From Escherichia phage dw-ec, in the sequence record OL739525.1: a stretch of DNA of 64,000 bases; one strand, 5' to 3'. The position numbers were made by a program, and so were the translations under genes. Shown piece after piece: positions 50,784 to 64,000 of this stretch. Below the pieces are notes generated by a model. The model worked only from the letters and a program-made list of their open reading frames with translations, did no database searches and was not told the origin of the DNA. Position 1 is the first letter of the stretch; each line of letters begins with the position of its first letter.

Positions 50784-50820
50784 AAGTTTATAAATGAGAT
50801 TGATTCTTATTTAATAAGGT

Positions 50821-51836: not shown

Positions 51837-51842
51837 AAAGTA

Positions 51843-51904
51843 TTGACAACAACCAACAACCTGATAAGATGTATCACATAGGGCGGCGGAATGGTCCACC
51901 GCTC
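51843..51904 (+). promoter_or_regulatory. promoter-leader cassette P1 (TTGACA-16-TAAGAT + leader stem-loop)
   Basis: -35 51843..51848, -10 51865..51870, then GTATCACATAGGGCGGCGGAATGGTCCACCGCTC hairpin and AGAAGAGAG leader. Confidence 0.7.
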
Positions 51905-51927
51905 ACAACAGAAGAGAGATTATAATC

Positions 51928-52200
51928 ATGGCATCATATAGCGCAACAATGATCGTAGCTGGCACCACTGGTAAACCTATGAGCGGTGGCGGATCTTTCG
52001 CAAATATCAACATTGACGGGCGTTTATCCCTGGACGCAGCGATCACCGTGGCGCGGGAAACATTTAAGAAAGAATGTAAATTCAATAAACAAGATTATCT
52101 CGGTTTTGCTATTGAAAAAACCGCGCGTTTTGTTGATTATAAAAGCCCAAAAATGGTTGATACTACACTAAAAGCGCAAGATGTAGCGTTTTTGCTTTAA
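51928..52200 (+). CDS. hypothetical early protein
   Basis: 90 aa ORF downstream of P1. Confidence 0.55.
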   Translation: MASYSATMIVAGTTGKPMSGGGSFANINIDGRLSLDAAITVARETFKKECKFNKQDYLGFAIEKTARFVDYKSPKMVDTTLKAQDVAFLL

Positions 52201-52203
52201 GGC

Positions 52204-52259
52204 TTGACATTAACGAATAATTTGTTAATATGTTACATAAAGCGGGAATAGTTCCCGCT
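52204..52259 (+). promoter_or_regulatory. promoter-leader cassette P2
   Basis: TTGACA, TAATAT, hairpin GCGGGAA-tag-TTCCCGC. Confidence 0.65.
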
Positions 52260-52276
52260 ATTTGTAAGGTGGTAGA

Positions 52277-52534
52277 ATGTTTTACATCAAATTAAAAGGT
52301 CACGTGATCGCGTTCAAAGATAACGCTTTTTACAGATTAGCAAAATATGCGTTAATACATCCCCACTATGTTTATATAAGGGGGCGTGATGAAATAAATA
52401 TCTTTGATCAAACAACATGCGAAAACATCGAGATCCGCAAGGTTGGCGTACGTGATTATCGTACATCTTTCTACCCTTGCAAGGATTCAGCAAGTCTTTT
52501 CAAAGTATGCCAATTGTTGAAAAAAGGTGGTTAA
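52277..52534 (+). CDS. hypothetical early protein
   Basis: 85 aa ORF. Confidence 0.55.
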   Translation: MFYIKLKGHVIAFKDNAFYRLAKYALIHPHYVYIRGRDEINIFDQTTCENIEIRKVGVRDYRTSFYPCKDSASLFKVCQLLKKGG

Positions 52535-52535
52535 T

Positions 52536-53093
52536 ATGGGCCGCGAATATGTGATCCAGTCTTGGGTAAAACATGAAGCAGATGATCCGCGCATCATTCC
52601 CGATCATCTTATCGATGAATCCACGGGATATAGCGGTGAGCAAATAGGTAACAGATTAGCACGTAGTAACGGCAACGTAAAAGCGCGTTATGTGCGCCCT
52701 GGTTGGCTGGCAAATGGTAATGCTGATTTATCCAGTGCGGAAGATGCGAGCGACGGCGCGAAAGATAATCCTTTGTACAAAGTTGATCCGGCTTTTCGTG
52801 TCCTGGATGAATACCCCAGCAAGATAGCGGCGCTCGATCAGGCCCTGGAAAGTAAGCGCATCACCTGGACCGCTTACAACATGGCAAAAAACGTACTTGA
52901 TGGTAAATTGATTCAAGCTGAAAGAAAATTAGCCAAAATTGCAGCCATAGCCCAGGAGGAAGACGAGGAGACAACGGAAGAGGAAGAGTACGAAGAGATC
53001 CCGCCGTTGTTGTGTGTTGATGCTTTTCCTGATTATCAGCCGACAGAGGAAGAAAAAAGGATCGCACTAGAAAACTTTGAAAATAGTCTTTGA
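52536..53093 (+). CDS. hypothetical early protein with acidic C-terminal region
   Basis: ATG at 52536 after AGGTGG; E-rich segment. Confidence 0.55.
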   Translation: MGREYVIQSWVKHEADDPRIIPDHLIDESTGYSGEQIGNRLARSNGNVKARYVRPGWLANGNADLSSAEDASDGAKDNPLYKVDPAFRVLDEYPSKIAALDQALESKRITWTAYNMAKNVLDGKLIQAERKLAKIAAIAQEEDEETTEEEEYEEIPPLLCVDAFPDYQPTEEEKRIALENFENSL

Positions 53094-53148
53094 CATATCG
53101 CCGCCACTGGCATAATATTTACCACGTAGGGCGGCAATGGTGCCGCTC
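53090..53148 (+). promoter_or_regulatory. promoter-leader cassette P3
   Basis: TTGACA-17-TAATAT, hairpin GCGGCA-atgg-TGCCGC. Confidence 0.65.
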
Positions 53149-53175
53149 ATAGTAAAATTATGCAAGAGGTTTGCA

Positions 53176-53271
53176 ATGATTAATAAAGAAAATAGCTTGA
53201 CGGTTGGAACGATTAACGCTATCATTTTCGCCGTTCCATTTTGGGTTGTAGTAGCGGCTATTATTTTCTAA
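53176..53271 (+). CDS. small hydrophobic peptide (31 aa)
   Basis: Not in ORF track; ATG after AAGAGG; MINKENSLTVGTINAIIFAVPFWVVVAAIIF; lies between cassettes P3 and P4. Confidence 0.35.
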   Translation: MINKENSLTVGTINAIIFAVPFWVVVAAIIF

Positions 53272-53280
53272 AAAATATTC

Positions 53281-53341
53281 TTGACAACGTTTTTTAATCT
53301 GATAAGATGTATCACATAGGGCGGCGGAATACTTCCCCGCC
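53281..53341 (+). promoter_or_regulatory. promoter-leader cassette P4
   Basis: TTGACA-16-TAAGAT, GTATCACATAGGGCGGCGGAATACTTCCCCGCC. Confidence 0.65.
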
Positions 53342-53362
53342 AAAACAAAAAAGGGTAACACA

Positions 53363-53725
53363 ATGAGCAAGCAAATCAGTACTATCATGTTTAATCTGGT
53401 ATCTTTCCGCGATGATATGAAAAATTTACCACGTGAAACGGTTGATATTCATGTTTCAGCTTATCGCGCCCTTATTGACATGTTACCGCTAAAACGTGAT
53501 CAACATGCCGCTAATATGATGCTTAATGCTATGCTTAAAAAGATGATTCAAACGGATCTCACCCTGGCATATGAGTATCAAGGGCGCTTATATGCAACTT
53601 ACAACAAAGCGGTACCTGGTTTGGGAAGTACCGAAGAGTTGCACGGCTTAAACCTGGATCAAAACACTTGGGATAGTATGCGCCGCGTTATGGTATGGGC
53701 CGAAAGCGGTAAAATTTACGAATAA
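53363..53725 (+). CDS. hypothetical early protein
   Basis: 120 aa ORF. Confidence 0.55.
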   Translation: MSKQISTIMFNLVSFRDDMKNLPRETVDIHVSAYRALIDMLPLKRDQHAANMMLNAMLKKMIQTDLTLAYEYQGRLYATYNKAVPGLGSTEELHGLNLDQNTWDSMRRVMVWAESGKIYE

Positions 53726-53731
53726 AAACGG

Positions 53732-53788
53732 TTGACACTGTTTAAACTTCTGGTATAGTTTATCACGTAGGGCGGCAATGGTGCCGCC
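53732..53788 (+). promoter_or_regulatory. promoter-leader cassette P5
   Basis: TTGACA-16-TATAGT, hairpin GGCGGCA-atgg-TGCCGCC. Confidence 0.65.
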
Positions 53789-53808
53789 AACAATAAAAGG
53801 TTAACATC

Positions 53809-53988
53809 ATGGCTATCATTGCAAAAACTGAGATTATAGGTTTAGATTCGATCCTCCTGGCTTATGAGGAAACTTTAAAAATGTATATAGTGACCTATGG
53901 TGATTATGTGCGTGAATACGAATACATTGATCTTGCTTTCGAATGTTACATTCGCCAGGTCAATAAAGCCTATAACGATTATCGTTAA
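53809..53988 (+). CDS. hypothetical early protein (59 aa)
   Basis: Not in ORF track; starts MAI like neighbouring cassette genes; hand-translated. Confidence 0.45.
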   Translation: MAIIAKTEIIGLDSILLAYEETLKMYIVTYGDYVREYEYIDLAFECYIRQVNKAYNDYR

Positions 53989-54007
53989 AAGTTTTAGTCT
54001 TATACTA

Positions 54008-54060
54008 TTGACAATGAGTGATAGTATAAGCATAATAACTTTTATCGGGAATACTTCCCA
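54008..54060 (+). promoter_or_regulatory. promoter-leader cassette P6
   Basis: TTGACA-17-CATAAT, hairpin GGGAA-tac-TTCCC. Confidence 0.6.
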
Positions 54061-54085
54061 CTAACCAAAAAGAGAGAGTGACACC

Positions 54086-54451
54086 ATGGCTATTAATATC
54101 AATGTTTCCGCTTATGCTACCCTGGCTAACACGGCTAAAATTGAATTATCCAGCATTGAGGCGGTGCATATTAGCGCCCGTCGCTGGTTTCAACGGTCCT
54201 ACGGTAACACATATTTTTCTTTAATGGTTGACGTTGAGATCGGCGGTAAACTGATCGAGGTGGTTAACGTTCCGTTTCAATATGGCTATGGTGATCATTT
54301 TGATACCGTCGCCCTGGAAGAATTTAGCAAGGTTATCAACCTTGAGGGCAAGGAATTTTCACGCGGCGCGTATCTTTCCCGTTTTTGCCGTGACAATGGG
54401 ATCACTGTATACAGTCATGCAAGCGATGTAAAACGTAAAAAAGATTTATAA
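54086..54451 (+). CDS. hypothetical early protein
   Basis: 121 aa ORF. Confidence 0.55.
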   Translation: MAININVSAYATLANTAKIELSSIEAVHISARRWFQRSYGNTYFSLMVDVEIGGKLIEVVNVPFQYGYGDHFDTVALEEFSKVINLEGKEFSRGAYLSRFCRDNGITVYSHASDVKRKKDL

Positions 54452-54456
54452 AAGCA

Positions 54457-54517
54457 TTGACAGCACGAATAAAAAGAGTAAACTGTATTACATAGAGAGC
54501 GGGAATAGTTCCCGCCT
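54457..54517 (+). promoter_or_regulatory. promoter-leader cassette P7
   Basis: TTGACA-16-TAAACT, GTATTACATAGAGAGCGGGAATAGTTCCCGCC. Confidence 0.65.
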
Positions 54518-54539
54518 CATTCAAAGAGAGATTATCATC

Positions 54540-54779
54540 ATGGCTATTACTAAAACTTACAACGGTCACAAAAACAAAACTCACTGGAATGTAAGCCTTT
54601 GGATTAATAACGATGAATCGTTATACCGGTTGGCCCAAGATTTTATTAACGCTAATGCTAATCGTAATGATGCGGCGCGGGATATGATGCTTTTTCTGGA
54701 ACAAACTGGACAAGATAAAACGCCAGACGGTTTCAAATATAGCACTACTGCGATCCGTGCCGCGATGGTTGGAATGTAA
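54540..54779 (+). CDS. hypothetical early protein
   Basis: 79 aa ORF. Confidence 0.55.
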   Translation: MAITKTYNGHKNKTHWNVSLWINNDESLYRLAQDFINANANRNDAARDMMLFLEQTGQDKTPDGFKYSTTAIRAAMVGM

Positions 54780-54788
54780 TAAAAACAG

Positions 54789-54849
54789 TTGACAACGTTT
54801 AAAATTAGTGTAAGATGTATCACATAGGGCGGGAAGTGGTTTCCCGCCA
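54789..54849 (+). promoter_or_regulatory. promoter-leader cassette P8
   Basis: TTGACA-16-TAAGAT, hairpin GGCGGGAA-gtggt-TTCCCGCC. Confidence 0.65.
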
Positions 54850-54869
54850 AAACAGAGAGATTAAAGATT

Positions 54870-55097
54870 ATGGCTATCAATATTGTTCGCGTATCCGGCA
54901 CCGTTGGCACTTCCCAGGTCATTGCAGTTGTAACAAACAAAAAGATTAATGATGTATGTGAGATCTTGAATAAGTGGGCTGTTGCTAATTTTGGGGAATA
55001 TGCAAGCGTCGAGTACATCGAATCCTACCAGGTGCCAACCATCAGCCTAACCGATCTCAACGTTGATCGCCTGTTATGCCTGGATGAATTAATCTGA
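54870..55097 (+). CDS. hypothetical early protein
   Basis: 75 aa ORF. Confidence 0.55.
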   Translation: MAINIVRVSGTVGTSQVIAVVTNKKINDVCEILNKWAVANFGEYASVEYIESYQVPTISLTDLNVDRLLCLDELI

Positions 55098-55106
55098 AAA
55101 AGATTG

Positions 55107-55164
55107 TTGACACGGGAAAGAAAAAGAGTAAACTGTATTACGTAGGGCGGCAATAGTGCCGCTC
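55107..55164 (+). promoter_or_regulatory. promoter-leader cassette P9
   Basis: TTGACA-16-TAAACT, hairpin GCGGCA-atag-TGCCGC. Confidence 0.65.
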
Positions 55165-55187
55165 ACAACAGAAGAGAGATTATCACG

Positions 55188-55400
55188 ATGGCTAATATCC
55201 GCACACTGTTAAAAAATGCAAGTCAAGTTTTATTTTCTGATCACGATCATTTTAATAAAGATATTACAGGCGTGAAGAATATCAAAGATGTAAAAAGTGT
55301 TATGGGTATATATTGCAATGTTAAACGTGTTGGAACGTTCGGTGATAAAGTATTGTATCAATCAGGTGATTACAATTTTACTTTGACGATTATTTCATAA
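55188..55400 (+). CDS. hypothetical early protein
   Basis: 70 aa ORF. Confidence 0.55.
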   Translation: MANIRTLLKNASQVLFSDHDHFNKDITGVKNIKDVKSVMGIYCNVKRVGTFGDKVLYQSGDYNFTLTIIS

Positions 55401-55406
55401 AACCGC

Positions 55407-55468
55407 TTGCAATACTGCAAAAATAAAGTAAACTGTATTACATCAAGGCGGCGGAATGGTCCACCGCC
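55407..55468 (+). promoter_or_regulatory. promoter-leader cassette P10
   Basis: TTGCAA-16-TAAACT, hairpin GGCGGCGGAATGGTCCACCGCC. Confidence 0.6.
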
Positions 55469-55492
55469 TAACAAAGAGAAGAGGAAAACATC

Positions 55493-55660
55493 ATGATCAC
55501 TTTCGCTACCCGTGAAGCCGCTCGCAACGTTGCCCGTAAAGTTAACGCCGCCAACCTGGGCGCTACGTTTAAAGCACCTGTAAAAGATGAATCAGGAAAA
55601 TGGATCTTCCCTGGTCTGCGTCACGCTGATAAGCTAGGCACTTTAAGCCTTAAAAAATAA
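55493..55660 (+). CDS. hypothetical early protein (55 aa)
   Basis: Not in ORF track; MITFATREAARNVARKV...; shares MITFA start with 55735..55956. Confidence 0.45.
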   Translation: MITFATREAARNVARKVNAANLGATFKAPVKDESGKWIFPGLRHADKLGTLSLKK

Positions 55661-55663
55661 TCG

Positions 55664-55701
55664 TTGACTTTTCGTTATAGCGCCCATTATAAGGCGCTAT
55701 A
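55664..55701 (+). promoter_or_regulatory. promoter-like element P11 with distinct hairpin
   Basis: TTGACT then AGCGCC-cattataa-GGCGCT hairpin overlapping the -10 region. Confidence 0.4.
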
Positions 55702-55734
55702 GAGAAGAGAAACCACTACTAACAAGGAAACATC

Positions 55735-55956
55735 ATGATCACTTTCGCTATTGTCGCCGTTGTTGCTGGTCAGGTTTACGTAAACGATACATTCACCACA
55801 GAAGACAAGGCCGCAGGAGACATAACCGCCGTTTACAATGAGTGCAAGGCAGTAGAAAGAATGTTAGCGCCTTGTATGCTAATGAGTGAACGCCAGGACG
55901 GGATAACAGTATTTACTAACATTGAAACAGGGTACCAAATGGTAGTAACAAAATAA
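55735..55956 (+). CDS. hypothetical early protein
   Basis: 73 aa ORF. Confidence 0.5.
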   Translation: MITFAIVAVVAGQVYVNDTFTTEDKAAGDITAVYNECKAVERMLAPCMLMSERQDGITVFTNIETGYQMVVTK

Positions 55957-55959
55957 AGC

Positions 55960-56018
55960 TTGACACGGATTTAATTTTCAGTAAACTGTTACACGTAGAG
56001 CGGGAATAGTTCCCGCTC
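55960..56018 (+). promoter_or_regulatory. promoter-leader cassette P12
   Basis: TTGACA-17-TAAACT, hairpin GCGGGAA-tag-TTCCCGC. Confidence 0.65.
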
Positions 56019-56035
56019 AAAAAGAGAGAAAGACC

Positions 56036-56389
56036 ATGAAAGCACAAAATGCAATTAAAGAGTACATCCTTGCCGCTATCGATTTTAATGATTACGGTAT
56101 TACAACCGAAAAAGAGAAGATCGCGGAATTGATGCGCCGTTTTAATTCCGAGTACTGGTACCCTGATAACCAATCACGTTTTAATTATAGTATTGTTAAA
56201 GCACTTGCATCATGGTTACAAGGTTTGCCATCAGATATCAATATCGCTTTCGAATATTGGGAAATTGATCGCCTGTTAACATCCTGGGGATACATTAAAG
56301 AGAATAGCAGCGATGATAAAATCCAACGAGAAAGGGAAAATTATTGGCTTTATATTGCAGGCGTGATCCTTGCTTGCTCTTATGAATGA
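56036..56389 (+). CDS. hypothetical early protein
   Basis: 117 aa ORF. Confidence 0.55.
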   Translation: MKAQNAIKEYILAAIDFNDYGITTEKEKIAELMRRFNSEYWYPDNQSRFNYSIVKALASWLQGLPSDINIAFEYWEIDRLLTSWGYIKENSSDDKIQRERENYWLYIAGVILACSYE

Positions 56390-56395
56390 TAAACC

Positions 56396-56449
56396 TTGAC
56401 AATTTTACAAAACAGTTTAAATTAATAATATAGCGGCAATGGTACCGCT
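56396..56449 (+). promoter_or_regulatory. promoter-leader cassette P13
   Basis: TTGACA, AT-rich -10 region, hairpin GCGGCA-atgg-TACCGC (one mismatch). Confidence 0.5.
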
Positions 56450-56468
56450 CATATAAAGAGGAAACAAA

Positions 56469-56615
56469 ATGAATACATCTAATCGCGCAGAAAAAATTCA
56501 ATCTTCCAAGATCCGCAAGGCCTGGAATGAGGAAGTGATCCGCAAAGGCGACAAGCGCAATAAAACAAAGCGCGGGAAGAGTGACAAATATAATTGGATG
56601 GATTTAGAGAATTAA
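56469..56615 (+). CDS. small basic protein (48 aa)
   Basis: Not in ORF track; ATG after AAGAGGAAA; Lys/Arg-rich. Confidence 0.4.
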   Translation: MNTSNRAEKIQSSKIRKAWNEEVIRKGDKRNKTKRGKSDKYNWMDLEN

Positions 56616-56621
56616 CATAAC

Positions 56622-56650
56622 AAGGGCGCACCAAGCGCCCTTTCTTTTTA
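56622..56650 (+). terminator. rho-independent terminator
   Basis: GGGCGC-accaa-GCGCCC followed by TTTCTTTTT; near-identical copies at 61964 and 62529. Confidence 0.7.
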
Positions 56651-56670
56651 CATGTAGAGGATAAACAAAA

Positions 56671-56856
56671 ATGACTTTAAACGAGCTTAAAACAGCGTAC
56701 AGCGCAACATTAAAAATAGCCGTGCGTTACCGTGACGAATACGGTTTTATTGCGCAGGGCGTGATCCTGGGCTTTTCTGACGATGGTTTGATCTATGTTG
56801 ATGCACATTATAACAAGGTTAAACCGGAAAACGTTATTAGCATAAAATATCTTTAA
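56671..56856 (+). CDS. hypothetical early protein
   Basis: 61 aa ORF. Confidence 0.5.
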   Translation: MTLNELKTAYSATLKIAVRYRDEYGFIAQGVILGFSDDGLIYVDAHYNKVKPENVISIKYL

Positions 56857-56862
56857 AAACGG

Positions 56863-56922
56863 TTGACACCATAACCGGACCTGTTAAACTGTATTACATC
56901 AGGCGGGGAATAGTTCCCCACC
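56863..56922 (+). promoter_or_regulatory. promoter-leader cassette P14
   Basis: TTGACA-16-TAAACT, hairpin GGGGAA-tag-TTCCCC. Confidence 0.65.
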
Positions 56923-56941
56923 ATACAAAAAGGTAAATATT

Positions 56942-57148
56942 ATGATCACCGCAAAACAAGAAAAAATCATTATCGACGTTGCAGCCGTTGCCGCTATCGC
57001 TATTATTGGATCTTATTATGATACCCGTTTCCCGTCGGCTATGCATGAGGTCGCCGCCGTTGCATCAGTTGGCGTACTGTTTTACGTTGGTAAACGCTAT
57101 TTATCACCAATGATTAACAAGCTGACACCGTGGAAAAATAAAGGTTGA
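56942..57148 (+). CDS. small membrane protein
   Basis: 68 aa; hydrophobic segment IIIDVAAVAAIAIIG. Confidence 0.5.
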   Translation: MITAKQEKIIIDVAAVAAIAIIGSYYDTRFPSAMHEVAAVASVGVLFYVGKRYLSPMINKLTPWKNKG

Positions 57149-57201
57149 TCCTGTTTTACATTGTGTTATAGTTATCGTGTAGGGCGGCAATGGTGCCGCG
57201 C
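57145..57201 (+). promoter_or_regulatory. promoter-leader cassette P15
   Basis: TTGATC-16-TATAGT, hairpin GCGGCA-atgg-TGCCGC. Confidence 0.55.
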
Positions 57202-57219
57202 CCCTTTGAGGATGCAATC

Positions 57220-57504
57220 ATGAGTAAAGCTAACACCGTGCTAATGTTTTCCCTGATTAATGATCTCGCTTACTTGTCCAACATGACGCAGGAGGGTAAC
57301 ACATTAACGGCAACATTCACCAATAAGCTTGACCGAGTGATCATCATCTCACTGAAAACAGTTAGTAAAGGCTTTTACTCGTTAGCTTATCATTGGATCA
57401 CCGATACCGATGAGACAAGCCAGGACTATAGCGCCCCTTTCCCTGAATCAATGGCACGGGAGATCATCGCCGCCGTTATAAATGATGGTTTGTTTACTGC
57501 ATAA
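57220..57504 (+). CDS. hypothetical early protein
   Basis: ATG at 57220 after GAGGA; track start 57190 lies inside the leader hairpin. Confidence 0.5.
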   Translation: MSKANTVLMFSLINDLAYLSNMTQEGNTLTATFTNKLDRVIIISLKTVSKGFYSLAYHWITDTDETSQDYSAPFPESMAREIIAAVINDGLFTA

Positions 57505-57521
57505 ATAATTTAGAAAAAGGC

Positions 57522-57578
57522 TTGCAATCATTTTGAGATAGTGTATATTTAATTCATAGGGCGGCGGGAATAGTTCCC
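57522..57578 (+). promoter_or_regulatory. promoter-leader cassette P16
   Basis: TTGCAA, TATATT, hairpin GGGAA-tag-TTCCC. Confidence 0.55.
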
Positions 57579-57601
57579 AAAGCAAACGAGAGGATTACAC
57601 G

Positions 57602-57721
57602 ATGAGCAAGTACACAGTAGAATACACGGTAGAAAATCCGGCAGTATCCGAAGGTAAAAAGATGACATTTGCCATCAGTATAATCGCTTTCGTTGTCACT
57701 ATCTTATCAATCATCTTATAA
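57602..57721 (+). CDS. small membrane peptide (39 aa)
   Basis: Not in ORF track; ATG after GAGAGGA; C-terminal TM helix FAISIIAFVVTILSIIL. Confidence 0.35.
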   Translation: MSKYTVEYTVENPAVSEGKKMTFAISIIAFVVTILSIIL

Positions 57722-57731
57722 GGTGCACACC

Positions 57732-57893
57732 ATGAAAACAACAGACATTATCAAAGAGATCGCCCTTGCCGCTGGCGTTGAAGTCGAGGAAGTGATCGCG
57801 CTCAATCTTACAGAAAACGATCTGCGCAACTATGAAGCGGAAAGCGTGAAAGCAAGCGGCGCGGTCCTGGTATATGATCCGGCTAACAAGTAA
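57732..57893 (+). CDS. hypothetical early protein
   Basis: ATG at 57732 after AAGGTG. Confidence 0.45.
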   Translation: MKTTDIIKEIALAAGVEVEEVIALNLTENDLRNYEAESVKASGAVLVYDPANK

Positions 57894-57902
57894 GGGGATA
57901 AC

Positions 57903-58013
57903 ATGAATCCGAAAGATATGCAAGCATGGAAAGGGTACGACGATCTAAGCGCCTTGCGCAATAAGTCAAGCCGTAACCTTAGACGGTTGGAAGCAAAGAA
58001 AAAGAAAAAATAG
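57903..58013 (+). CDS. small basic protein (36 aa)
   Basis: Not in ORF track; ATG after AAGGGGA; Lys-rich tail. Confidence 0.3.
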   Translation: MNPKDMQAWKGYDDLSALRNKSSRNLRRLEAKKKKK

Positions 58014-58014
58014 T

Positions 58015-58071
58015 TTGACAAGTCCGCCTAGTCTGATAATATGTATCTTGTAGGGCGGCAATGGTGCCGCT
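58015..58071 (+). promoter_or_regulatory. promoter-leader cassette P17
   Basis: TTGACA-16-TAATAT, hairpin GCGGCA-atgg-TGCCGC. Confidence 0.65.
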
Positions 58072-58091
58072 CACAAGAAGAGAGAAAAATC

Positions 58092-58376
58092 ATGAAAATC
58101 ACAAAAAGCCTAACTAATTATGCAGCACGTCGCGGATTATGTTTAACCGTTGAAAACTTAGGGAAAGAAGACTTTTTGTGTTTTTGGGAGCTTGAAAATG
58201 ATTGCGAGTGGATGTTTTCTTATTCTATCTGCGAAGATCAAAACGGTTGTTTGTTAACCTGGCGCGGTAATATCTATTTACCGGAAGAAATTAAAGAAGA
58301 GTTACCAGGTACGATCATGACAGAGAGACAGCTTAAGGAAATGATTAATTTTGTAGGGCAAAACATTAAAAAATAA
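58092..58376 (+). CDS. hypothetical early protein
   Basis: ATG at 58092 (track start 58041 overlaps the leader hairpin). Confidence 0.5.
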   Translation: MKITKSLTNYAARRGLCLTVENLGKEDFLCFWELENDCEWMFSYSICEDQNGCLLTWRGNIYLPEEIKEELPGTIMTERQLKEMINFVGQNIKK

Positions 58377-58377
58377 T

Positions 58378-58440
58378 TTGACAGCACGCAAATAACGTAG
58401 TAAAGTTTATTACATAGAGCGGCGGAATGGTCCACCGCTC
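58378..58440 (+). promoter_or_regulatory. promoter-leader cassette P18
   Basis: TTGACA-17-TAAAGT, hairpin GCGGCGGAATGGTCCACCGC. Confidence 0.65.
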
Positions 58441-58461
58441 ACAACAGAAGAGAAACAAATC

Positions 58462-58632
58462 ATGATCCCGACTATGTTTTATGTATCGCGCAAAGGTCAC
58501 AATATTTTTTGGTCTGAAGATTTAAATGAAGCTATGACGTTTGCCCGTGATCGTGTTGCTATCGGTGGCGTTAACATCACCGTAACCGATGAAAACGGCA
58601 TTGAATACTATAACGGCGACAATGAAGAGTAA
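58462..58632 (+). CDS. hypothetical early protein (56 aa)
   Basis: Not in ORF track; hand-translated without stops. Confidence 0.45.
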   Translation: MIPTMFYVSRKGHNIFWSEDLNEAMTFARDRVAIGGVNITVTDENGIEYYNGDNEE

Positions 58633-58639
58633 TCAACAA

Positions 58640-58657
58640 GGCGGGATTAATCCCGCC
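58640..58657 (+). other. intergenic stem-loop (GGCGGGAT-ta-ATCCCGCC)
   Basis: Perfect 8-bp stem between two small genes; no U-tract. Confidence 0.5.
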
Positions 58658-58676
58658 TGTATTAAAGGGCAATATA

Positions 58677-58814
58677 ATGAAAACTTTCAACGCAACAGCC
58701 TCGACAATTGGTTATATTATTACAGTACAAGCCGTTGACCTGGTAGCGGCAGCAAACAAGATTAAAAAAATGATCCCAACAGGCAGCGAATTTTCCGTTT
58801 GGGAAGTAAAATAA
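58677..58814 (+). CDS. hypothetical early protein (45 aa)
   Basis: Not in ORF track; hand-translated. Confidence 0.4.
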   Translation: MKTFNATASTIGYIITVQAVDLVAAANKIKKMIPTGSEFSVWEVK

Positions 58815-58817
58815 AGC

Positions 58818-58880
58818 TTGACAATAATTTGTTATCTAGTAAAGTGTATTACGTAGGGCGGGGCAATGGTGCAACGCCCA
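58818..58880 (+). promoter_or_regulatory. promoter-leader cassette P19
   Basis: TTGACA-16-TAAAGT, GTATTACGTAGGGCGGGGCAATGGTGCAACGCCC. Confidence 0.6.
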
Positions 58881-58897
58881 TTAATGAGGGTAGAATC

Positions 58898-59002
58898 ATG
58901 TTAGAGAAAATTTTCACGGTTGCAGTGGTTGGCCTGGCGTTATCGGTTGGAGTAGTTGCAACTATGGCTAATATGATCCTATCTTCCCACGGTATCGGTT
59001 AA
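58898..59002 (+). CDS. small membrane peptide (34 aa)
   Basis: ATG at 58898 after GAGGGTAGAA; MLEKIFTVAVVGLALSVGVVATMANMILSSHGIG. Confidence 0.35.
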   Translation: MLEKIFTVAVVGLALSVGVVATMANMILSSHGIG

Positions 59003-59003
59003 G

Positions 59004-59228
59004 GTGAAACAAATGATCACGAACAAAACAGGCAAAACGGAATTTTTACGCGGCTTACAAGTTGGTAAGCCTGAGATCTGGCATTGCACGAAGTCCGCGC
59101 ATAATGAAATGAAAGATTTTACCGCTACTTTACAACGTGTTAAAATATCTATCACACAGAAAAAAGCCTTGTTAGTAGTAGAAAACGAGATCCCGCAAAC
59201 TATTATTATTGTCGAGCGTACAGCATGA
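59004..59228 (+). CDS. hypothetical early protein
   Basis: 74 aa ORF. Confidence 0.5.
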   Translation: MKQMITNKTGKTEFLRGLQVGKPEIWHCTKSAHNEMKDFTATLQRVKISITQKKALLVVENEIPQTIIIVERTA

Positions 59229-59611
59229 AAACAGAAATCATTATTGAAATCATCAACGGCTATAAAGAAGCCTTTATTTTTGCTGAATCAGCAAGGGATC
59301 ATGAAGGTAATTTTATTGATAACTTAGACGATTATGATTTTTCTCCTAGCGCGGATCAACGGATCGCCCAGGATGTAACAGCCTTTATTAATGCTAATCT
59401 TGCCGCTATCTCTGAGGCAATGAGCGACGGCGCAACAGCCAACCAGATCGGGAATGATTTACATTTTACCCGTAACGGTCACGGCGTAGGCTTTTGGGAT
59501 CGCCCTGAAATATACACCACTAACACGGCGAACCGCCTAACCAATGCAGCTAAGTTTATGCCGAACGTGTCGGCTTACATTGGTGAAGATAATTTGATTT
59601 ATATTGAATAA
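59225..59611 (+). CDS. hypothetical early protein
   Basis: 128 aa ORF. Confidence 0.55.
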   Translation: MKTEIIIEIINGYKEAFIFAESARDHEGNFIDNLDDYDFSPSADQRIAQDVTAFINANLAAISEAMSDGATANQIGNDLHFTRNGHGVGFWDRPEIYTTNTANRLTNAAKFMPNVSAYIGEDNLIYIE

Positions 59612-59617
59612 AAAGTA

Positions 59618-59675
59618 TTGACACAGATCGCCAGTGTGATAATATTTACCACGTAGGGCGGCAATGGTGCCGCTC
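59618..59675 (+). promoter_or_regulatory. promoter-leader cassette P20
   Basis: TTGACA-16-TAATAT, hairpin GCGGCA-atgg-TGCCGC. Confidence 0.65.
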
Positions 59676-59694
59676 ACTGTAAAAGGTAAACATT

Positions 59695-59886
59695 ATGAAA
59701 ACTATCACCTATCTGGAATCGAATAACATGTTTTTTGCGCCCGTTGATGAAATCATCGAAGCATTAAACAACGAGGAAGGGATCAATGGTTTATCTTATA
59801 GCCAACTTTTAGGAATGGTTGCAGCAAATGCAGAGCTTGCTTACTATGTTGAAAATTTTGATGAAGCTGTAATCTTTACAAAATAA
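59695..59886 (+). CDS. hypothetical early protein
   Basis: 63 aa ORF. Confidence 0.5.
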   Translation: MKTITYLESNNMFFAPVDEIIEALNNEEGINGLSYSQLLGMVAANAELAYYVENFDEAVIFTK

Positions 59887-59889
59887 TCC

Positions 59890-59946
59890 TTGATCTAATC
59901 TCTTAAATAACTTATATTTAATGCGTAGGGCGGCAATGGTGCCGCC
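59890..59946 (+). promoter_or_regulatory. promoter-leader cassette P21
   Basis: TTGATC-17-TATATT, hairpin GGCGGCA-atgg-TGCCGCC. Confidence 0.55.
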
Positions 59947-59964
59947 GATAATGAGGAAAGTAAA

Positions 59965-60264
59965 ATGGAAACTATCGCTATTGTTACCGTAGAAAAACTG
60001 GTTGTTGGTGATGTATTCGCGTTAATGGTGCCTAACAGCAGCAAGCTGGGCGCTTATGAAGTAATGGATCATAAAAATGAATCATTTGGCGACGGTTGCA
60101 CAATGGCGGTAAAATCTTTAAAGGATGGAATCATCCGTCAAGCTAATTGGCACAAAGGAAATCAAGTCGGATTAATATCAGCTAATTTCTTGCCAGAAGA
60201 GCAAACGTTAGACCAACTGTCAGGCGGTAAGACGTTAGCCGAACTACTGGAAACAGCGATCTAA
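59965..60264 (+). CDS. hypothetical early protein
   Basis: 99 aa ORF. Confidence 0.55.
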   Translation: METIAIVTVEKLVVGDVFALMVPNSSKLGAYEVMDHKNESFGDGCTMAVKSLKDGIIRQANWHKGNQVGLISANFLPEEQTLDQLSGGKTLAELLETAI

Positions 60265-60272
60265 TCAACAAA

Positions 60273-60288
60273 GGGGCGGCAACGCCCC
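60273..60288 (+). other. intergenic stem-loop (GGGGCG-gcaa-CGCCCC)
   Basis: 6-bp GC stem with GNRA-type loop, no U-tract. Confidence 0.5.
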
Positions 60289-60308
60289 ACGTCAGAAAGG
60301 AAAAGATT

Positions 60309-60545
60309 ATGAGTATTGCAACAGTATTAAACGCCGTTAAAACCGCTGAATCATCCGGCTTACATGTTGAGCTTATAGATCAACCAGGTGGCGATCTCCT
60401 GGTCCAGGTTTACCCGCCGAAAGTAGGGGATGATTATTATTGGTGCTATTCCGATACGTTCGAACAAGTAGACACGAAAGCGATCACGGCTTTTATTTTA
60501 AAAGCTATTGAAGAAAATAATTTTCATTATAACATCAATCAATAA
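60309..60545 (+). CDS. hypothetical early protein
   Basis: 78 aa ORF. Confidence 0.5.
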   Translation: MSIATVLNAVKTAESSGLHVELIDQPGGDLLVQVYPPKVGDDYYWCYSDTFEQVDTKAITAFILKAIEENNFHYNINQ

Positions 60546-60554
60546 ACCATAAGC

Positions 60555-60570
60555 GGGGCGGTAACGCCCC
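60555..60570 (+). other. intergenic stem-loop (GGGGCG-gtaa-CGCCCC)
   Basis: Same stem as 60273 with a different GNRA loop. Confidence 0.5.
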
Positions 60571-60600
60571 ATTAAACGCAATAGGAAGAGGCTAGAAAGC

Positions 60601-60885
60601 ATGAAAAAGATGATCGCAGTAGTTGCCCTGGTTGTTGGTATTAACGCGCCTGTAATGGCGAAAGAGTTGCCAGAATCCATCACGTTAACCGATATTAACG
60701 CAGTGAACCGGATCGGCGTTAATTATCGCCTATGCCTTGCCGCTAAAACTTTCCAGGACGGCACAACAGAGTACTACGGATTCGAGGGTGTCCGGTGCGG
60801 TGAGCTTGCACGCGACCTTAAGGAAGATCCAGACCTTGAGGCCATACCGATGACCGTAAACGGTAAAGCCCAGGTAAACCGCTAA
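60601..60885 (+). CDS. secreted/periplasmic protein
   Basis: Signal peptide MKKMIAVVALVVGINAPVMA. Confidence 0.55.
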   Translation: MKKMIAVVALVVGINAPVMAKELPESITLTDINAVNRIGVNYRLCLAAKTFQDGTTEYYGFEGVRCGELARDLKEDPDLEAIPMTVNGKAQVNR

Positions 60886-60887
60886 CC

Positions 60888-61022
60888 ATGAGAAAGGTAA
60901 TCATCACAATGGGGATCGTAGTAGCAACGCTGGCGCTTATCCCCTTCCTGGTTGAATATGTGCTGATTAATGTTGTCCTGGTAGTCAGTGACCTATTGGA
61001 AACGGTTGGCAACTGGTTTTAA
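60888..61022 (+). CDS. small membrane peptide (44 aa)
   Basis: Not in ORF track; ATG after GAGAAAGG; two hydrophobic segments. Confidence 0.35.
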   Translation: MRKVIITMGIVVATLALIPFLVEYVLINVVLVVSDLLETVGNWF

Positions 61023-61197
61023 GATAAATAAACAGGGCTTGCTTTTGTCCTGTTTTTTGTTATGCTTATTGAACGGGCGGCACCTGGGAGCAGGGGAAGA
61101 TAATCACCGGAAGACCCCGCTATATATTGATAGCTAACATCTATCAAACAACAAAACATCAAAGGAATAAACTATCAAATCTTTACAATCCCACCTA

Positions 61198-61254
61198 TTG
61201 ACACCGGATCACGCTTACATTATTATTTATCACGTAGGGCGGGAATGTTTCCCA
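61198..61254 (+). promoter_or_regulatory. promoter-leader cassette P22
   Basis: TTGACA-17-TATTAT, hairpin GGGAA-tgt-TTCCC. Confidence 0.6.
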
Positions 61255-61274
61255 CCTGATTTAGGAGTCATATC

Positions 61275-61508
61275 ATGATCGAACAAATTAAAAGCACTAC
61301 ACCAAATGTTAACGGTAATGTTTCTCACTTTATCGGGGATAATGAAAGAGGTACACCGTACGCCGCCGTAACCGTTCAACCTAACGGGGATTATTGGTTT
61401 ACCGTGTACGGATCTTACTCTTTTGGACGTTCGGCACATGATAAGATCTTGCAAGTGGTTAAGCCTACTGGGAAGAATATCACAGCAGAAAAATTTTATA
61501 AAAAATAA
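61275..61508 (+). CDS. hypothetical early protein
   Basis: 77 aa ORF. Confidence 0.5.
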   Translation: MIEQIKSTTPNVNGNVSHFIGDNERGTPYAAVTVQPNGDYWFTVYGSYSFGRSAHDKILQVVKPTGKNITAEKFYKK

Positions 61509-61569
61509 CTTGCTTTATAGCTCCTGTTAACTTATAGTTATTGCGTAGGGCGAGCAATACAGCAAGCCC
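61509..61569 (+). promoter_or_regulatory. promoter-leader cassette P23 (divergent variant)
   Basis: TTGCTT, TATAGT, then TTGCGTAGGGCGAGCAATACAGCAAGCCC with alternative pairing. Confidence 0.45.
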
Positions 61570-61586
61570 ACAAAGAGGAAAATAAA

Positions 61587-61955
61587 ATGAGCAAATCAGC
61601 AATTAAAGCACTTGAAAAAGCACAAGAAGTGATCGCAACGTCAACCACTGGCGCAAATATTAATTTGGTCGCTTATCTGGAAGATGAAACTATCCGTAAA
61701 AATTGGCGTAATGCTGATTTACTGGCTTGCTTATTGATTAATAGTGTCGCTAATGCTTTCCAGTGTGAAACAGCCGAGAGCCTGGAGGAAAACTTGTTTG
61801 ATAATATGGATCAAGCCATTGAAACCTATATACAATCAAACTTGGATAGCTGGAACAGTAAAACATGGCCCGACAATTTACGCGATACAACTGATCAACT
61901 GATCCGCCTTGCCGTGATGGTTGAACGCGATAACGTTTACAACAGCACAAAGTAA
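61587..61955 (+). CDS. hypothetical early protein
   Basis: 122 aa ORF. Confidence 0.55.
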   Translation: MSKSAIKALEKAQEVIATSTTGANINLVAYLEDETIRKNWRNADLLACLLINSVANAFQCETAESLEENLFDNMDQAIETYIQSNLDSWNSKTWPDNLRDTTDQLIRLAVMVERDNVYNSTK

Positions 61956-61963
61956 GATTATAC

Positions 61964-61990
61964 AAGGGGCGCACTAAGCGCCCTTTAACG
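61964..61990 (+). terminator. rho-independent terminator
   Basis: GGGGCGC-actaa-GCGCCCC followed by TTTAACG. Confidence 0.55.
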
Positions 61991-62011
61991 TAAAGAAATG
62001 TAAATAATGCG

Positions 62012-62050
62012 CTATCCCCTATTGACAGGGGATCGGCGTTATATTATATT
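62012..62050 (+). promoter_or_regulatory. promoter P24 with -35 embedded in a palindrome
   Basis: TCCCCT-attgac-AGGGGA hairpin contains TTGACA (62022..62027); 17 nt later TATATT. Confidence 0.45.
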
Positions 62051-62095
62051 TAACTCACTGGCAGCAAACAACGAAACGAAACAAAGGATAACACT

Positions 62096-62515
62096 ATGAA
62101 CATTAAATCAAATAATCCAGCTTACTCCTTCGATAACGCTTTTTGTCACGGTAGCGCCGCCAAAGGCTTCGAAATCGATGGTAAATTGGTTATCGTGAAC
62201 GTTGACGGGGAAGAGGTTGCAGTGTATCCGGTAAACGATGTTAAAAGCCGTTTACAATGCCGTATGGATGTTACCGCATATCAGCTTGATCCGATCCGTG
62301 TAGTTGCCCTGGTATTAGAGGAAGAGATCAAAGCAATGCATCACAGTAATAAGTTTATTGGTGACGCGCAGGATAATATGAACGTTTGCCGCCATAAAGT
62401 TAATGAAGCACTGAAAGAATGCGGTTTTAAGGATCTGATGATCAAACGTGATGAAAAATTCCGCTTTCGTAATGACCTGGCAAACCGGATCTACTCAATC
62501 TATGAAGCGTTATAA
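62096..62515 (+). CDS. hypothetical early protein
   Basis: 139 aa ORF, last gene before the non-coding A+C-rich region. Confidence 0.55.
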   Translation: MNIKSNNPAYSFDNAFCHGSAAKGFEIDGKLVIVNVDGEEVAVYPVNDVKSRLQCRMDVTAYQLDPIRVVALVLEEEIKAMHHSNKFIGDAQDNMNVCRHKVNEALKECGFKDLMIKRDEKFRFRNDLANRIYSIYEAL

Positions 62516-62528
62516 TTGACAACAAAAC

Positions 62529-62556
62529 AAGGGCGCACCAAGCGCCCTTTCTTTTT
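62529..62556 (+). terminator. rho-independent terminator
   Basis: GGGCGC-accaa-GCGCCC followed by TTTCTTTTT; identical core to 56622. Confidence 0.7.
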
Positions 62557-63130
62557 GCCCGAACAATGTTGATAGCTTTCGCCTATGAAAAACCGACACA
62601 GAACAAAATTGAATAAATCGCGGTATCGAGCTAATCAACCATTAAACGAATAACCATACCTCCCAGGGTAACAGGCTGTTAGAGAGCCATTTATAGCGGT
62701 TAAAATCGATCAACAACCAACAACAAACCATCAAAAACACCCTTCTACCTCCTTTCTAGTGCAATGATAACCATTATCATCTACCCATGATTATCTATGC
62801 AATATAAGCGCATAATTATAATGTTGATAATAGTTCGCAACAACTAACCAACAAACAACATAAAACAATAAGCAAACTAATCATAATCAAAGGAATAATA
62901 GCAAGATGATTGATAACGACAAACAATCAAACCATGATGAATACTAAGCAAAATAACGATAACACGACAAAACAACCAACTAACGAACAATAACAAACGA
63001 AACCATTAAAATAATAACTATTGCCATAATAGTGACTGAATGAAATCATTACAAAACGAATCATTCACAGGATCATCATTAGCACGCTATGCCGGACACA
63101 TAGCGAGCTAATAATAAGCCAACTACACCC
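62557..63130 (+). other. ORF-free, strongly A+C-skewed non-coding region
   Basis: No ORF of 60 aa or more in any frame from 62516 to the window end; plus strand dominated by A and C with CAA/AAC-type triplet runs. Confidence 0.7.
62765..62779. promoter_or_regulatory. palindrome TGATAA-cca-TTATCA
   Basis: Inverted repeat of Fur-box-like hexamers. Confidence 0.4.
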
Positions 63131-63138
63131 CAACAATC

Positions 63139-63206
63139 ATAACCATCGGTGATGGTTATTTCTTGTTACTGCGTAGCTTGCAATAATTGCAAGCGTAATG
63201 ACGCTT
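63139..63206. repeat. cluster of three distinct palindromes
   Basis: ATAACCATC-ggt-GATGGTTAT (63139..63159), CTTGCAAT-a-ATTGCAAG (63177..63193), AAGCGT-aatg-ACGCTT (63191..63206). Confidence 0.7.
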
Positions 63207-63590
63207 ACACTTATTGCGCTGGCTTATTATTAGCATTATATGTAATTACCAAGATCATAACATTAGCGCAATAACAATAATCATTGTAATGGTTACAATA
63301 TGAAATCATTAGCAGGATGAATAATTGCACGTAGCAACATGAGCGAATAGCGACAGGTTGCATAGTGTGCACATAATAGAATAAAAGTCAATAATTTTGG
63401 GGGCGAAATGTTACCGCCACGGGCGGGAATGTTGAGCACTAAGAAAAGAGATAAACCTTAATCATGGGGGCGTAAATATCCGCAGGATTGCCAACGGCGA
63501 TCCGGTAGGATGTTGAGCATCTTCTCTTAAACGTAAATAAAATCAGAAAATTCTTGATTTATTCTGGTTTTTATGTTAATAAACGTTTAA

Positions 63591-63610
63591 ATAATAATCA
63601 TTCTCATATG
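63591..63610. promoter_or_regulatory. Fur-box-like element
   Basis: ATAATAATCATTCTCATATG; shares ATAATCATTCTCAT core with 50826..50839. Confidence 0.45.
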
Positions 63611-63766
63611 AATAATAGTCCGTCTGTCATGAGCGGCATTAGTTGACATTGTTCCGTCATATGATGAAGTTGCCAAACCATTGATAAATAAGCGTTTGTG
63701 TGATTTATAATCAAGTGGCCCACCTTGTCGCTATGTTGGCATAAGCCTTGCATAAGTCATTGAATA

Positions 63767-63789
63767 CGAATGATAATTATTCTCATTCG
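63767..63789. promoter_or_regulatory. Fur-box-like palindromic element
   Basis: CGAATGA-taattattc-TCATTCG. Confidence 0.45.
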
Positions 63790-63895
63790 CATGATATTTG
63801 GGAATTGTCGCTGCGTGGACCTGACGGCCCGAAAATTCGCGTTAGGTTAAACACCCAAGCAGACGCCGCAATATCAGCACCGACAGGAAACACAA

Positions 63896-64000
63896 AGACA
63901 CCGACAACTTTCTTGTCACATGTGTACTTCGTTCAGTTTCGAATGTTCGGGTGTTTATGCAATCGTAAGCCCTACCGTGACAAGAAAGTTGTCGGTGTCT
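63896..64000. repeat. 24-bp perfect inverted repeat (arms 63896..63919 and 63977..64000) flanking a 57-nt spacer
   Basis: AGACACCGACAACTTTCTTGTCAC and its exact reverse complement; right arm touches the window edge. Confidence 0.8.

Follow-up and report, generated by a model that had tools for sequence, protein, structure and literature searches.

We analysed a stretch of 64,000 nucleotides from Escherichia phage dw-ec (sequence record OL739525.1), referred to below as the window, and in particular the region at its right end in which almost no coding capacity is found. The longest open reading frame (ORF) in 62516-64000 is 53 aa on either strand, which agrees with the original prediction, made from the sequence alone, that about 1.5 kb here holds no ORF of 60 aa or more, but the last 156 of these bases turned out to be adapter and not phage DNA. 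The ORF-free stretch sits in an intergenic gap of 1.3 kb that runs up to a direct terminal repeat of 329 bp, and the locus is laid out as follows.

62529-62549, bidirectional: intrinsic terminator with an 8-bp GC-rich stem, closing the upstream gene (terminator scan)
62557-63135, plus strand: A/C-skewed, G-poor tract, which holds the operator/promoter block and the spacer (composition)
62836-63070, plus strand: structure-free G-poor spacer with A 53%, C 20%, G 10% and T 17% (folding, composition)
63078-63234: conserved multi-hairpin core of ~160 nt (RNAalifold, 22 sequences)
63516-63844: direct terminal repeat, 329 bp, ending on the right where the virion DNA itself ends
63845-64000: Oxford Nanopore adapter and barcode, an assembly artefact and not phage DNA

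By megablast, window positions 62400-64000 matched 86 phage records, most of them 93-98% identical and almost all of them phAPEC8-like Escherichia phages (Phapecoctavirus, Stephanstirmvirinae, ~150 kb). The phAPEC8 counterpart is an unannotated 1.5-kb gap between gp17 and gp18, both on the plus strand; the gp17 homologue occupies 62096-62515 of the window, and gp17 has an annotated terminator after it. The terminator at 62529-62549 is annotated as such in both phAPEC8 and Schickermooser, and GGGCGCAC.AAGCGCCC is invariant across the three genera aligned. No tRNA or tmRNA was detected by a scan for these genes. In relatives of at most 86% identity, the mini-ORFs of the gap are interrupted by stops or frameshifts: none of the nine tested is open in all relatives compared, and eight of at least 30 aa are already broken in the Wec group (86% identical). 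A Pfam search of the small flanking proteins (homologues of gp16-gp21) retrieved no domains and no DNA-binding candidate.

The matches of the relatives all end at window position 63844 (...GAAAATTCGCGTTA), and no phage record matches beyond it. The Schickermooser record starts at the equivalent of 63516, ends at that of 63844 and carries an identical 329 bases at both of its ends, where a terminal repeat of 328 bp has been published (PMC6563267); the BI-EHEC and Mt1B1_P17 records show the same end layout. What follows 63844 in the window can be read as sequencing oligos, for which PMC4678842 and PMC11533379 give the sequences. AdapterY, reverse-complemented, covers 63844-63892 with a single mismatch and a single gap; next is barcode 01, likewise reverse-complemented (24/24, 63891-63914), and after it come a Y-top adapter match (20/22), CCTACCGTGAC and barcode 01 in forward orientation (19/19, 63982-64000). 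Because adapters ligate to DNA ends and an adapter is fused at 63844, this position is a physical DNA end, and the second adapter and barcode in opposite orientation within 63845-64000 mark a read-to-read junction. By sequence comparison, then, the direct terminal repeat is 63516-63844 and the ORF-free tract is non-coding DNA just inside the right-hand repeat; the tract singled out in the original prediction lies 116-960 bp inside the repeat's left edge. Like terminal or concatemer-junction regions, it adjoins the genome end and its repeat, is non-coding, and keeps its position and layout among relatives.

The source assembly of the window was evidently left adapter-untrimmed, and two candidate features are explained by this. 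The 24-nt perfect inverted repeat at 63896-64000 is merely barcode 01 in two orientations, and a weak Rfam match to mir-1305 at the window end is an artefact of that inverted repeat. Elsewhere in the window, 17 consecutive C at 8504-8520 are either a true homopolymer or a long-read homopolymer error. We would also like to note that, over this region, several MG0656xx records are almost the same as these coliphages although their titles read ‘Campylobacter phage’ (or, in one case each, Acinetobacter and Pseudomonas); probably either the labels are wrong or the isolates were contaminants.

A comparable gap (1.3-1.8 kb) occurs in the Wec179 group, as well as in Justusliebigvirus (arall, Paula, ALITA, ECGD1 and KKP_3264), in unclassified Klebsiella phages (phi1_175008, KP13-26 and KP2025) and in four further metagenomic lineages. 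The order of elements is the same in all lineages sampled: terminator, a spacer of 500-660 nt (959 nt in one exception), core, 240-390 nt, TGTTGAGC, 330-480 nt, and TCGCGTTA. The last two, which are the motifs at the edges of the repeat, are kept throughout, and in the relatives AGCA..TCT follows both repeat edges: TGTTG/AGCAtCTTCTC and GCGTTA/AGCACTTCTTAC, with the slash at the edge. Early in the spacer, two sites resembling the operator (box) of the E. coli regulator Fur flank a rightward -10-like element in all lineages. A literature search found no description of this region in Stephanstirmvirinae and no published function for it.

For the core, a consensus was derived from alignments of 17 and then 22 distinct sequences; either strand gives the same fold.

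63080-63091 paired with 63099-63110: hairpin A (consensus fold)
63107-63121 paired with 63220-63234: long-range stem B, 15 bp, which encloses the inner hairpins (consensus fold)
63139-63159: hairpin HP2, with a 9-bp stem and a 3-nt loop (covariation)
63176-63194: palindrome P3, GCTTGCAA-N3-TTGCAAGC, with 9-bp arms around one base, the arms being invariant in every member
63193-63206: short hairpin P4, AGCGT AATG ACGCT, with 5-bp arms and a 4-nt loop, or alternatively part of an extended hairpin at 63180-63217

The original prediction had reported three different perfect palindromes between 63139 and 63206. Two of them, HP2 (the first one named) and P3, are perfect and far beyond chance, but the third, P4, is short; Justusliebigvirus has a longer hairpin at its position. 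Exhaustive enumeration of stems of at least 7 bp in 63130-63210 gave five entries, all of them HP2 or P3, against 0.06 expected, so that long perfect stems are ~80 times commoner here than in Markov shuffles. Compensatory double changes are seen at 13 pairs across the alignment, with pairing in 97-99% of cells, values which none of 500 shuffles reached, and when the partners were slid by 1-3 columns the pairing dropped to 22-52%. Depending on the strand and on the choice of RNA or DNA parameters, the z-score of the fold lies between -7.3 and -10.3 (-10.3 and -8.7 with DNA parameters). In HP2, six of nine pairs covary, and elsewhere the stem is wholly replaced (ATTACTATT/AATAGTAAT and GTGACTATT/AATAGTCAC). 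The arms of P3, on the other hand, are invariant among these covarying neighbours, which suggests that they are recognised by sequence.

The covariance model finds the core once in the window and not at all in the bacterial genomes searched; the 19-base P3 pattern does occur at five loci in bacterial genomes and several in metagenomes, all of which the model rejects as chance. Rfam holds no family for the core, either at the gathering score over the whole window or at E <= 1 over 50000-64000, barcode artefact aside. Two further candidates were set aside. HP2 was flagged by the scan as an intrinsic terminator, but its stem is AT-rich and its 3' flank is not U-rich in several lineages, for which reason we do not consider it one. 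An upstream copy of CGAGCTAAT (62624-62635) could pair over a long range with hairpin A, but this pairing does not covary. As a separate observation, the HP2 loop (63148-63150) reads GGT or its exact reverse complement ACC between close Justusliebigvirus genomes (arall versus Paula and others), with GCC and GGC also seen; this looks like a flip-flop inversion of the hairpin loop, or exchange between phages.

To the left of the core, the plus strand is dominated by A and C, as had been noted from the sequence at the outset. The tract 62557-63135 consists of A254 C132 G72 T121 (A+C = 0.667, GC skew ~ -0.3, AT skew ~ +0.3), and the 600-nt segment from 62551 has the top A+C of the 64 kb (0.66 versus a mean of 0.512, standard deviation 0.032). 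The CAA-type runs of the original prediction are likewise there, including the one it quoted (CAACAACCAACAACAAACC): CAACAACCAACAACAAACCA stands at 62711-62730, and there are four other A/C-only runs of at least 10 nt. Nevertheless, such runs barely exceed what the composition gives (71 bases versus 38.6 +/- 18 in shuffles, P = 0.04, a marginal excess), and they are not kept in the Justusliebigvirus or Klebsiella-phage lineages, the trait shared between genera being G-poverty. In every lineage the plus strand of the spacer has G 8-15% and C 16-23%, with A+C at 0.53-0.66, and the holding of G at 8-15% on the same strand despite sequence turnover argues for selection on composition.

The suggestion had been made that an abundant A/C-rich RNA from this tract titrates Hfq through its AAN/ARN repeats. 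The AAC repeats are formally ARN triplets, and the spacer would be single-stranded as a plus-strand RNA (minimum free energy -11.6 kcal/mol for 231 nt, z = -0.39, i.e., essentially unfolded). However, (ARN)n runs of at least four are not enriched (2 versus 1.4 expected, P = 0.43), the CAA runs are missing from other genera and no transcript is known, and we find this idea barely credible.

It could also be argued that the A/C part taken alone has no sequence-specific function and represents decayed leader or gene remnants, or neutral spacer between cis elements. The genera share only its composition and length, its sequence aligning poorly between them, and the runs, as said, hardly surpass composition. 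A/C-only runs are moreover common on the plus strand (15 of at least 14 nt across the window versus 3 G/T-only runs), and the copies read directly sit in intergenic sequence between small genes. The segment 62838-62947 resembles the phage's units of leader, Shine-Dalgarno sequence and ATG, but with 13 codons. Neutrality is at odds with the G-poverty of the same strand in every lineage, with a length held at 500-660 nt apart from the single 959-nt exception, and with 86-99% identity and few indels within the genus, and we consider it improbable. The 13 codons just mentioned form a small ORF in their own right, MIDNDKQSNHDEY (62906-62947, plus strand), with the Shine-Dalgarno sequence AAAGGAA and a CAA-rich leader, just past the promoter-like element described next; the region is unchanged in phAPEC8, ECO340P1 and two Wec phages (Wec179 group), and is lost in arall and phi1_175008.

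The tract and the terminal repeat also contain sites of a kind that we had not expected at the end of a lytic phage genome. Fur sites were scanned for as matches to the 19-bp E. coli consensus GATAATGATAATCATTATC, scored out of 19.

62760-62784: Fur-box-like operator 1, with matches of 15/19 and 14/19 overlapping 6 bp apart
62787-62835, plus strand: promoter-like element with a conserved -10, consisting of ATGATT, 18 nt, CATAAT (62811-62816) and TATAAT (62817-62822), then the degenerate Fur-like box 2
63587-63605: Fur-box-like site inside the repeat, 14/19, downstream of the invariant -35-like CTTGATTT
63766-63790: Fur-box-like site ~60 bp before the right end, with matches of 14/19 and 15/19 overlapping 6 bp apart

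The gap holds seven overlapping Fur-type matches of at least 14/19 in five places, against 0.18 expected, and the whole window 20 against 3.6 expected. Operator 1 contains the TGATAA-N3-TTATCA site of the original prediction, present as ATGATAACCATTATCAT at 62764-62780, and its position is kept in all 11 lineages aligned. Box 2 lies ~58 nt to its right and scores 13/19 here, as compared with 15-16/19 in the Justusliebigvirus and Klebsiella lineages. Between the two boxes, every lineage has on the plus strand a -10-like element, (T)GCATAAT or TATAAT (read as TGCATAAT, or as CATAAT then TATAAT at window 62811-62822), with a weak -35 upstream; we treat 62787-62835 as a putative promoter because the generic promoter scan did not flag it. 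In the relatives, Fur-like sites of up to 17/19 stand at fixed places: two, with ~60 nt between them, where the spacer begins, one ~70-150 nt after the beginning of the repeat, and one or two ~60 nt short of the right end. The site at 63587-63605 scores 16-17/19 in Justusliebigvirus, with TCTTGATTT invariant in the alignment. At the counterpart of 63766-63790, the Wec179 group has GATAATGATAATTATTCTC and lineage L032 has GATAATGATAATCATTCGC, both scoring 17/19.

As a positive control, the same scan was run on 27 kb around E. coli ent-fep, where all matches of at least 15/19 fell in the fepD-entS and fepB-entC intergenic regions (15-16/19), both known to be controlled by Fur, and the fepA-fes region gave 13/19, so that proven E. 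coli sites score 13-16/19. Fur is described as binding a 19-bp box, with arrays of at least three GATAAT-type hexamers or overlapping sites 6 bp apart (PMC2189734). The phage sites have both the 19-bp palindrome, at the level of proven sites, and the overlap, with pairs 6 bp apart at 62760/62766, 63766/63772, 50761/50767 and 50819/50825. Weak, uninformative matches were all that a Fur-like 36-mer retrieved from E. coli genomes by BLAST. Fur, or a phage protein of similar specificity, may bind at these putative operators.

With a promoter-like element facing the tract and a covarying fold beyond it, the locus could be taken to produce a structured non-coding RNA that acts in trans, as a regulator or a packaging RNA, with its expression set by the iron status of the host. 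A plus-strand transcript might begin at the Fur-box-flanked element (~62825), or else ~20 nt ahead of hairpin A, where another promoter-like site lies; it would have an unstructured A/C-rich 5' part followed by a folded domain of 160 nt. Alternatively, a leftward RNA might be made from the minus strand. The core does have a secondary structure supported by compensatory changes, by which structured RNAs are recognised, together with very low folding energies. In four lineages a promoter-like site lies at ~ -150 to -137 relative to the core anchor, the -10-like element between the two Fur-like boxes is conserved, and the A/C tract is essentially unfolded as RNA. On the minus strand the intermediates are G.U-compatible: the ~5 independent one-sided changes are all A.C on the plus strand, i.e., G.U or G.T on the minus strand, with none the opposite way, and the consensus energy is lower there (-56 to -59 versus -47 to -49 kcal/mol). 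This leans weakly toward the minus strand as the folded strand of the core. The recurrent promoter-like elements across lineages and all neighbouring genes, however, point along the plus strand, and a wobble bias opposite to them fits single-stranded DNA better than a plus-strand RNA. Promoter-like sites occur on both strands in numbers that do not clearly exceed chance, neither strand has a terminator after the fold (HP2 having no U-run in several lineages), and Rfam gave no match even at E = 1. Sequence conservation between genera is lacking in the A/C part, which therefore cannot regulate by base pairing, and our literature search found no transcriptome study of these phages, nor reports of Fur boxes in them. 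On balance, the structured core and the -10-like element facing the tract leave room for the non-coding RNA that had been proposed, though not in its Hfq-titrating form, and we regard such an RNA as an unlikely but serious contender.

A replication origin, or one of several, had been proposed as well; the hairpins and repeats would load an initiator or primosome, and transcription out of nearby promoters would activate the origin. The large, conserved ORF-free gap, its inverted repeats and its repeated ATTAGC motifs would suit an origin, and hairpins on the minus strand could serve as single-strand initiation signals for a leftward fork. The corresponding gap of phage rV5 holds several GT(A/G)AAC(A/T)(G/A)T-type repeats and coincides with a change in AT/GC skew listed in an origin search, although the rV5 authors put all listed skew changes down to switches in transcription direction (PMC3606486). 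In the present phage the local skew change is accounted for by the A/C tract itself. The gap has no exact DnaA box, near-matches to it are not enriched across the window (78 versus 87.9 expected), and there is no tandem iteron array, only dispersed ATTAGC hexamers. The origin proposal thus gains no positive support, and we judge it quite improbable.

A second ORF-poor region, at 50284-51638 and conserved in 147 phage records, looks at least as origin-like. An AT-rich tract is found in it, and a 72-nt sequence is directly repeated, at 50511-50582 and, after 138 nt, at 50649-50720. It also contains four palindromic Fur-like operators at 29-bp spacing in 50735-50842 (best 16/19, at 50819), and a GC-rich block comes after these at 50850-51100. 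Either the replication origin or another non-coding locus under Fur control may be situated here.

Between the core and the repeat lies a more variable zone, in which two further features were noted.

63283-63299: hairpin with a 7-bp stem and a 3-nt loop, in the variable zone (stem enumeration)
63368-63519, plus strand: promoter-like TGCACA-16-AATAAT (63368-63395), then two tandem modules at 63392-63458 and 63459-63519 (scan, repeats)

Other lineages have different TTAGC-based hairpins at the position of the first. Both modules, of 60-67 nt, end in ATGTTGAGCA, and the second abuts the terminal repeat; close relatives carry one or two modules with this ending. The hexamer ATTAGC/GCTAAT occurs six times in 62516-63515, compared with 0.72 per kb window-wide. 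Potentially, a second cut could be made at the first module, ~64 bp before the repeat edge, and close relatives also differ by a 13-nt indel and a replaced hairpin around 63320-63370. The modules share the 13-mer GGGCGGGAATGTT with a motif copy at 61234-61249, which belongs to a dispersed family: the 16-mer GTAGGGCGG(C/G)AATG(G/T)T has eight exact copies, all on the plus strand, in 53126-61249, and, at 63418-63433, an incomplete one. A sigma-70-like promoter, TTGACA-17-TATTAT (61198-61226), precedes the copy at 61234-61249, the single one inspected in this respect. The 16-mer matches the ‘PHIRE promoter’ annotation of phAPEC8 and could form a 5' hairpin on transcripts.

The position at the DNA end, the order of elements shared by all lineages sampled, the constraint on base pairing, the unchanging arms of the palindrome and the recurring hexamer are all in keeping with a cis-acting, right-hand subterminal DNA region for genome-end processing and packaging. 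We hold this to be the leading explanation, at somewhat less than an even chance. The packaging/terminus candidate of the original prediction stands as to location, next to the repeat and the physical end, the packaging role itself being presumptive. In replicating concatemers, the gap would form the left flank of the concatemer junction. The recognition or processing site would be the core together with palindrome P3 and the surrounding ATTAGC repeats, ~280-440 bp from the 329-bp repeat, and the terminase would cut at TGTTG/AGCA and GCGTTA/AGCA. The hairpins would form on transiently single-stranded DNA during duplication of the repeat, as in the T7 hairpin intermediate. The A/C-rich tract would act as a G-poor, structure-free spacer or insulator, of which composition and length are conserved and sequence is not, with the rightward promoter-like element and its flanking Fur-type operators upstream of it. 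Rho-dependent termination is plausible on RNA that is richer in C than G, untranslated and unfolded; transcription toward the junction, or Rho-dependent arrest on such RNA, might help to open the core or might insulate it.

Several points weigh against this explanation. The tie between region and packaging is presumptive for every member of the subfamily, and the core, to which terminase is assumed to bind, lies 280-440 bp from the cut site. Covariation with G.U-type intermediates is a classic signature of RNA, the strand bias of one-sided changes comes from ~5 events, and in DNA inverted repeats template switching can give compensatory changes too, without structural selection. The general scan found 16 promoter-like sites where 10.3 +/- 3.4 were expected, and these are weak consensus matches in AT-rich DNA. 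The likeness to T7 is one of architecture, with no sequence homology, and we know of no packaging role for Fur-type operators.

A bolder proposal would go further, with the Fur operators wiring the genome-end region and the second non-coding locus into the host iron regulon, and the 160-nt multi-hairpin being a new class of structured RNA or single-stranded DNA needed for packaging; we think this rather improbable. The terminal region has three Fur-grade sites and one degenerate box position, besides the four tandem operators at 50735-50842, and since two of the Fur-grade sites are inside the repeat, they are present at both genome ends. If the proposal were true, iron status would control transcription that starts in the terminal repeat or crosses the end-processing region; alternatively, accumulating genome copies would titrate Fur and so derepress host iron uptake. 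We note as puzzling that the same strand stays G-poor through complete sequence turnover, that the wobble bias is toward the apparently untranscribed strand, and that Fur-type operators are found at the end of a lytic phage genome, inside its repeat, and in four tandem copies at 50735-50842.

Among known systems, the leading explanation has its closest parallel in the concatemer junction of T7 and T3, which comprises a terminal repeat, pac signals, a subterminal hairpin intermediate and the promoter phiOR directed toward the junction. Here, too, there is a short direct terminal repeat (329 bp, versus T7's 160 bp), a non-coding stretch adjoining the right-hand repeat on its inner side and containing inverted repeats capable of forming hairpins, promoter-like elements toward the junction, and a need to duplicate the repeat when concatemers are cut. 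For T7-type phages, a passage of PMC4281155 that cites Chung & Hinkle 1990 states that the repeat must be duplicated at the concatemer junction and that a hairpin intermediate is found there. The present phage differs in showing no sequence similarity, in being a 150 kb myovirus that uses host RNA polymerase, and in having a non-coding stretch twice as long, a ~160-nt branched set of hairpins instead of one hairpin, Fur-type operators, and a function that is predicted. The T5 terminal repeat contains a non-coding region rich in repeats and palindromes that is linked to the first-step stop in DNA transfer. It is similar as a kb-scale ORF-free region near the genome end with many direct and inverted repeats, but the T5 region belongs to a repeat of 10 kb and goes with injection in two steps, whereas the repeat here is 329 bp and nothing suggests two-step transfer. 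The pRNA of phi29 comes from protein-primed podoviruses and has defined loop-loop contacts. It resembles the core as a fold of ~120-170 nt beside the genome end with a closing helix and a three-way junction; it has no homology to the core, which has no Rfam match and would be a putative RNA.

Compared with E. coli Fur boxes, the phage sites score alike (14-15/19 in the gap, 16/19 at 50819, up to 17/19 in the gaps of relatives) and overlap 6 bp apart as in fepD-entS and fepB-entC, but these putative sites are in a virulent phage, by the genome end and inside the terminal repeat. Closer to the phage itself, rV5 (Vequintavirus; NC_011041, our L037) has a gene-free region of 2.6 kb (3921-6524) after a 91%-identical homologue of the upstream gene, with a G-poor start, hairpins closed by a long-range stem (GGCAACTATG/CATAGTTGCC), an HP2-like hairpin, and Fur-like boxes at ~5401-5560. 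It differs in its GT(A/G)AAC(A/T)(G/A)T-type repeats (~4900-5060), which the present phage lacks, in that the covariance model of the core finds no match in it, and in that the genes after its gap are on the opposite strand. The rV5 genome paper draws this region as an ORF-less ‘non-coding’ box and offers no function (Kropinski et al. 2013, PMC3606486).

Such gene-free terminal regions (1.3-2.6 kb) have so far been left blank or merely labelled ‘non-coding’, in phages (phAPEC8-, phi92- and rV5-like) that are noted for broad host range (PMC6969025). The present region can now be described by its exact end positions, the motifs at its cut sites, a multi-hairpin that covaries, a palindrome with invariant arms, and operators of Fur type. 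This makes packaging and end formation in the subfamily directly testable and defines positions to preserve when these genomes are engineered or rebooted. It also suggests, unexpectedly, that the host's iron regulator might be read, or manipulated, by a strictly lytic phage. Set beside these systems, the gap is best read as the terminal cis region of a direct-terminal-repeat phage with two unexpected ingredients, namely branched, covarying hairpins and putative operators of the host Fur type.

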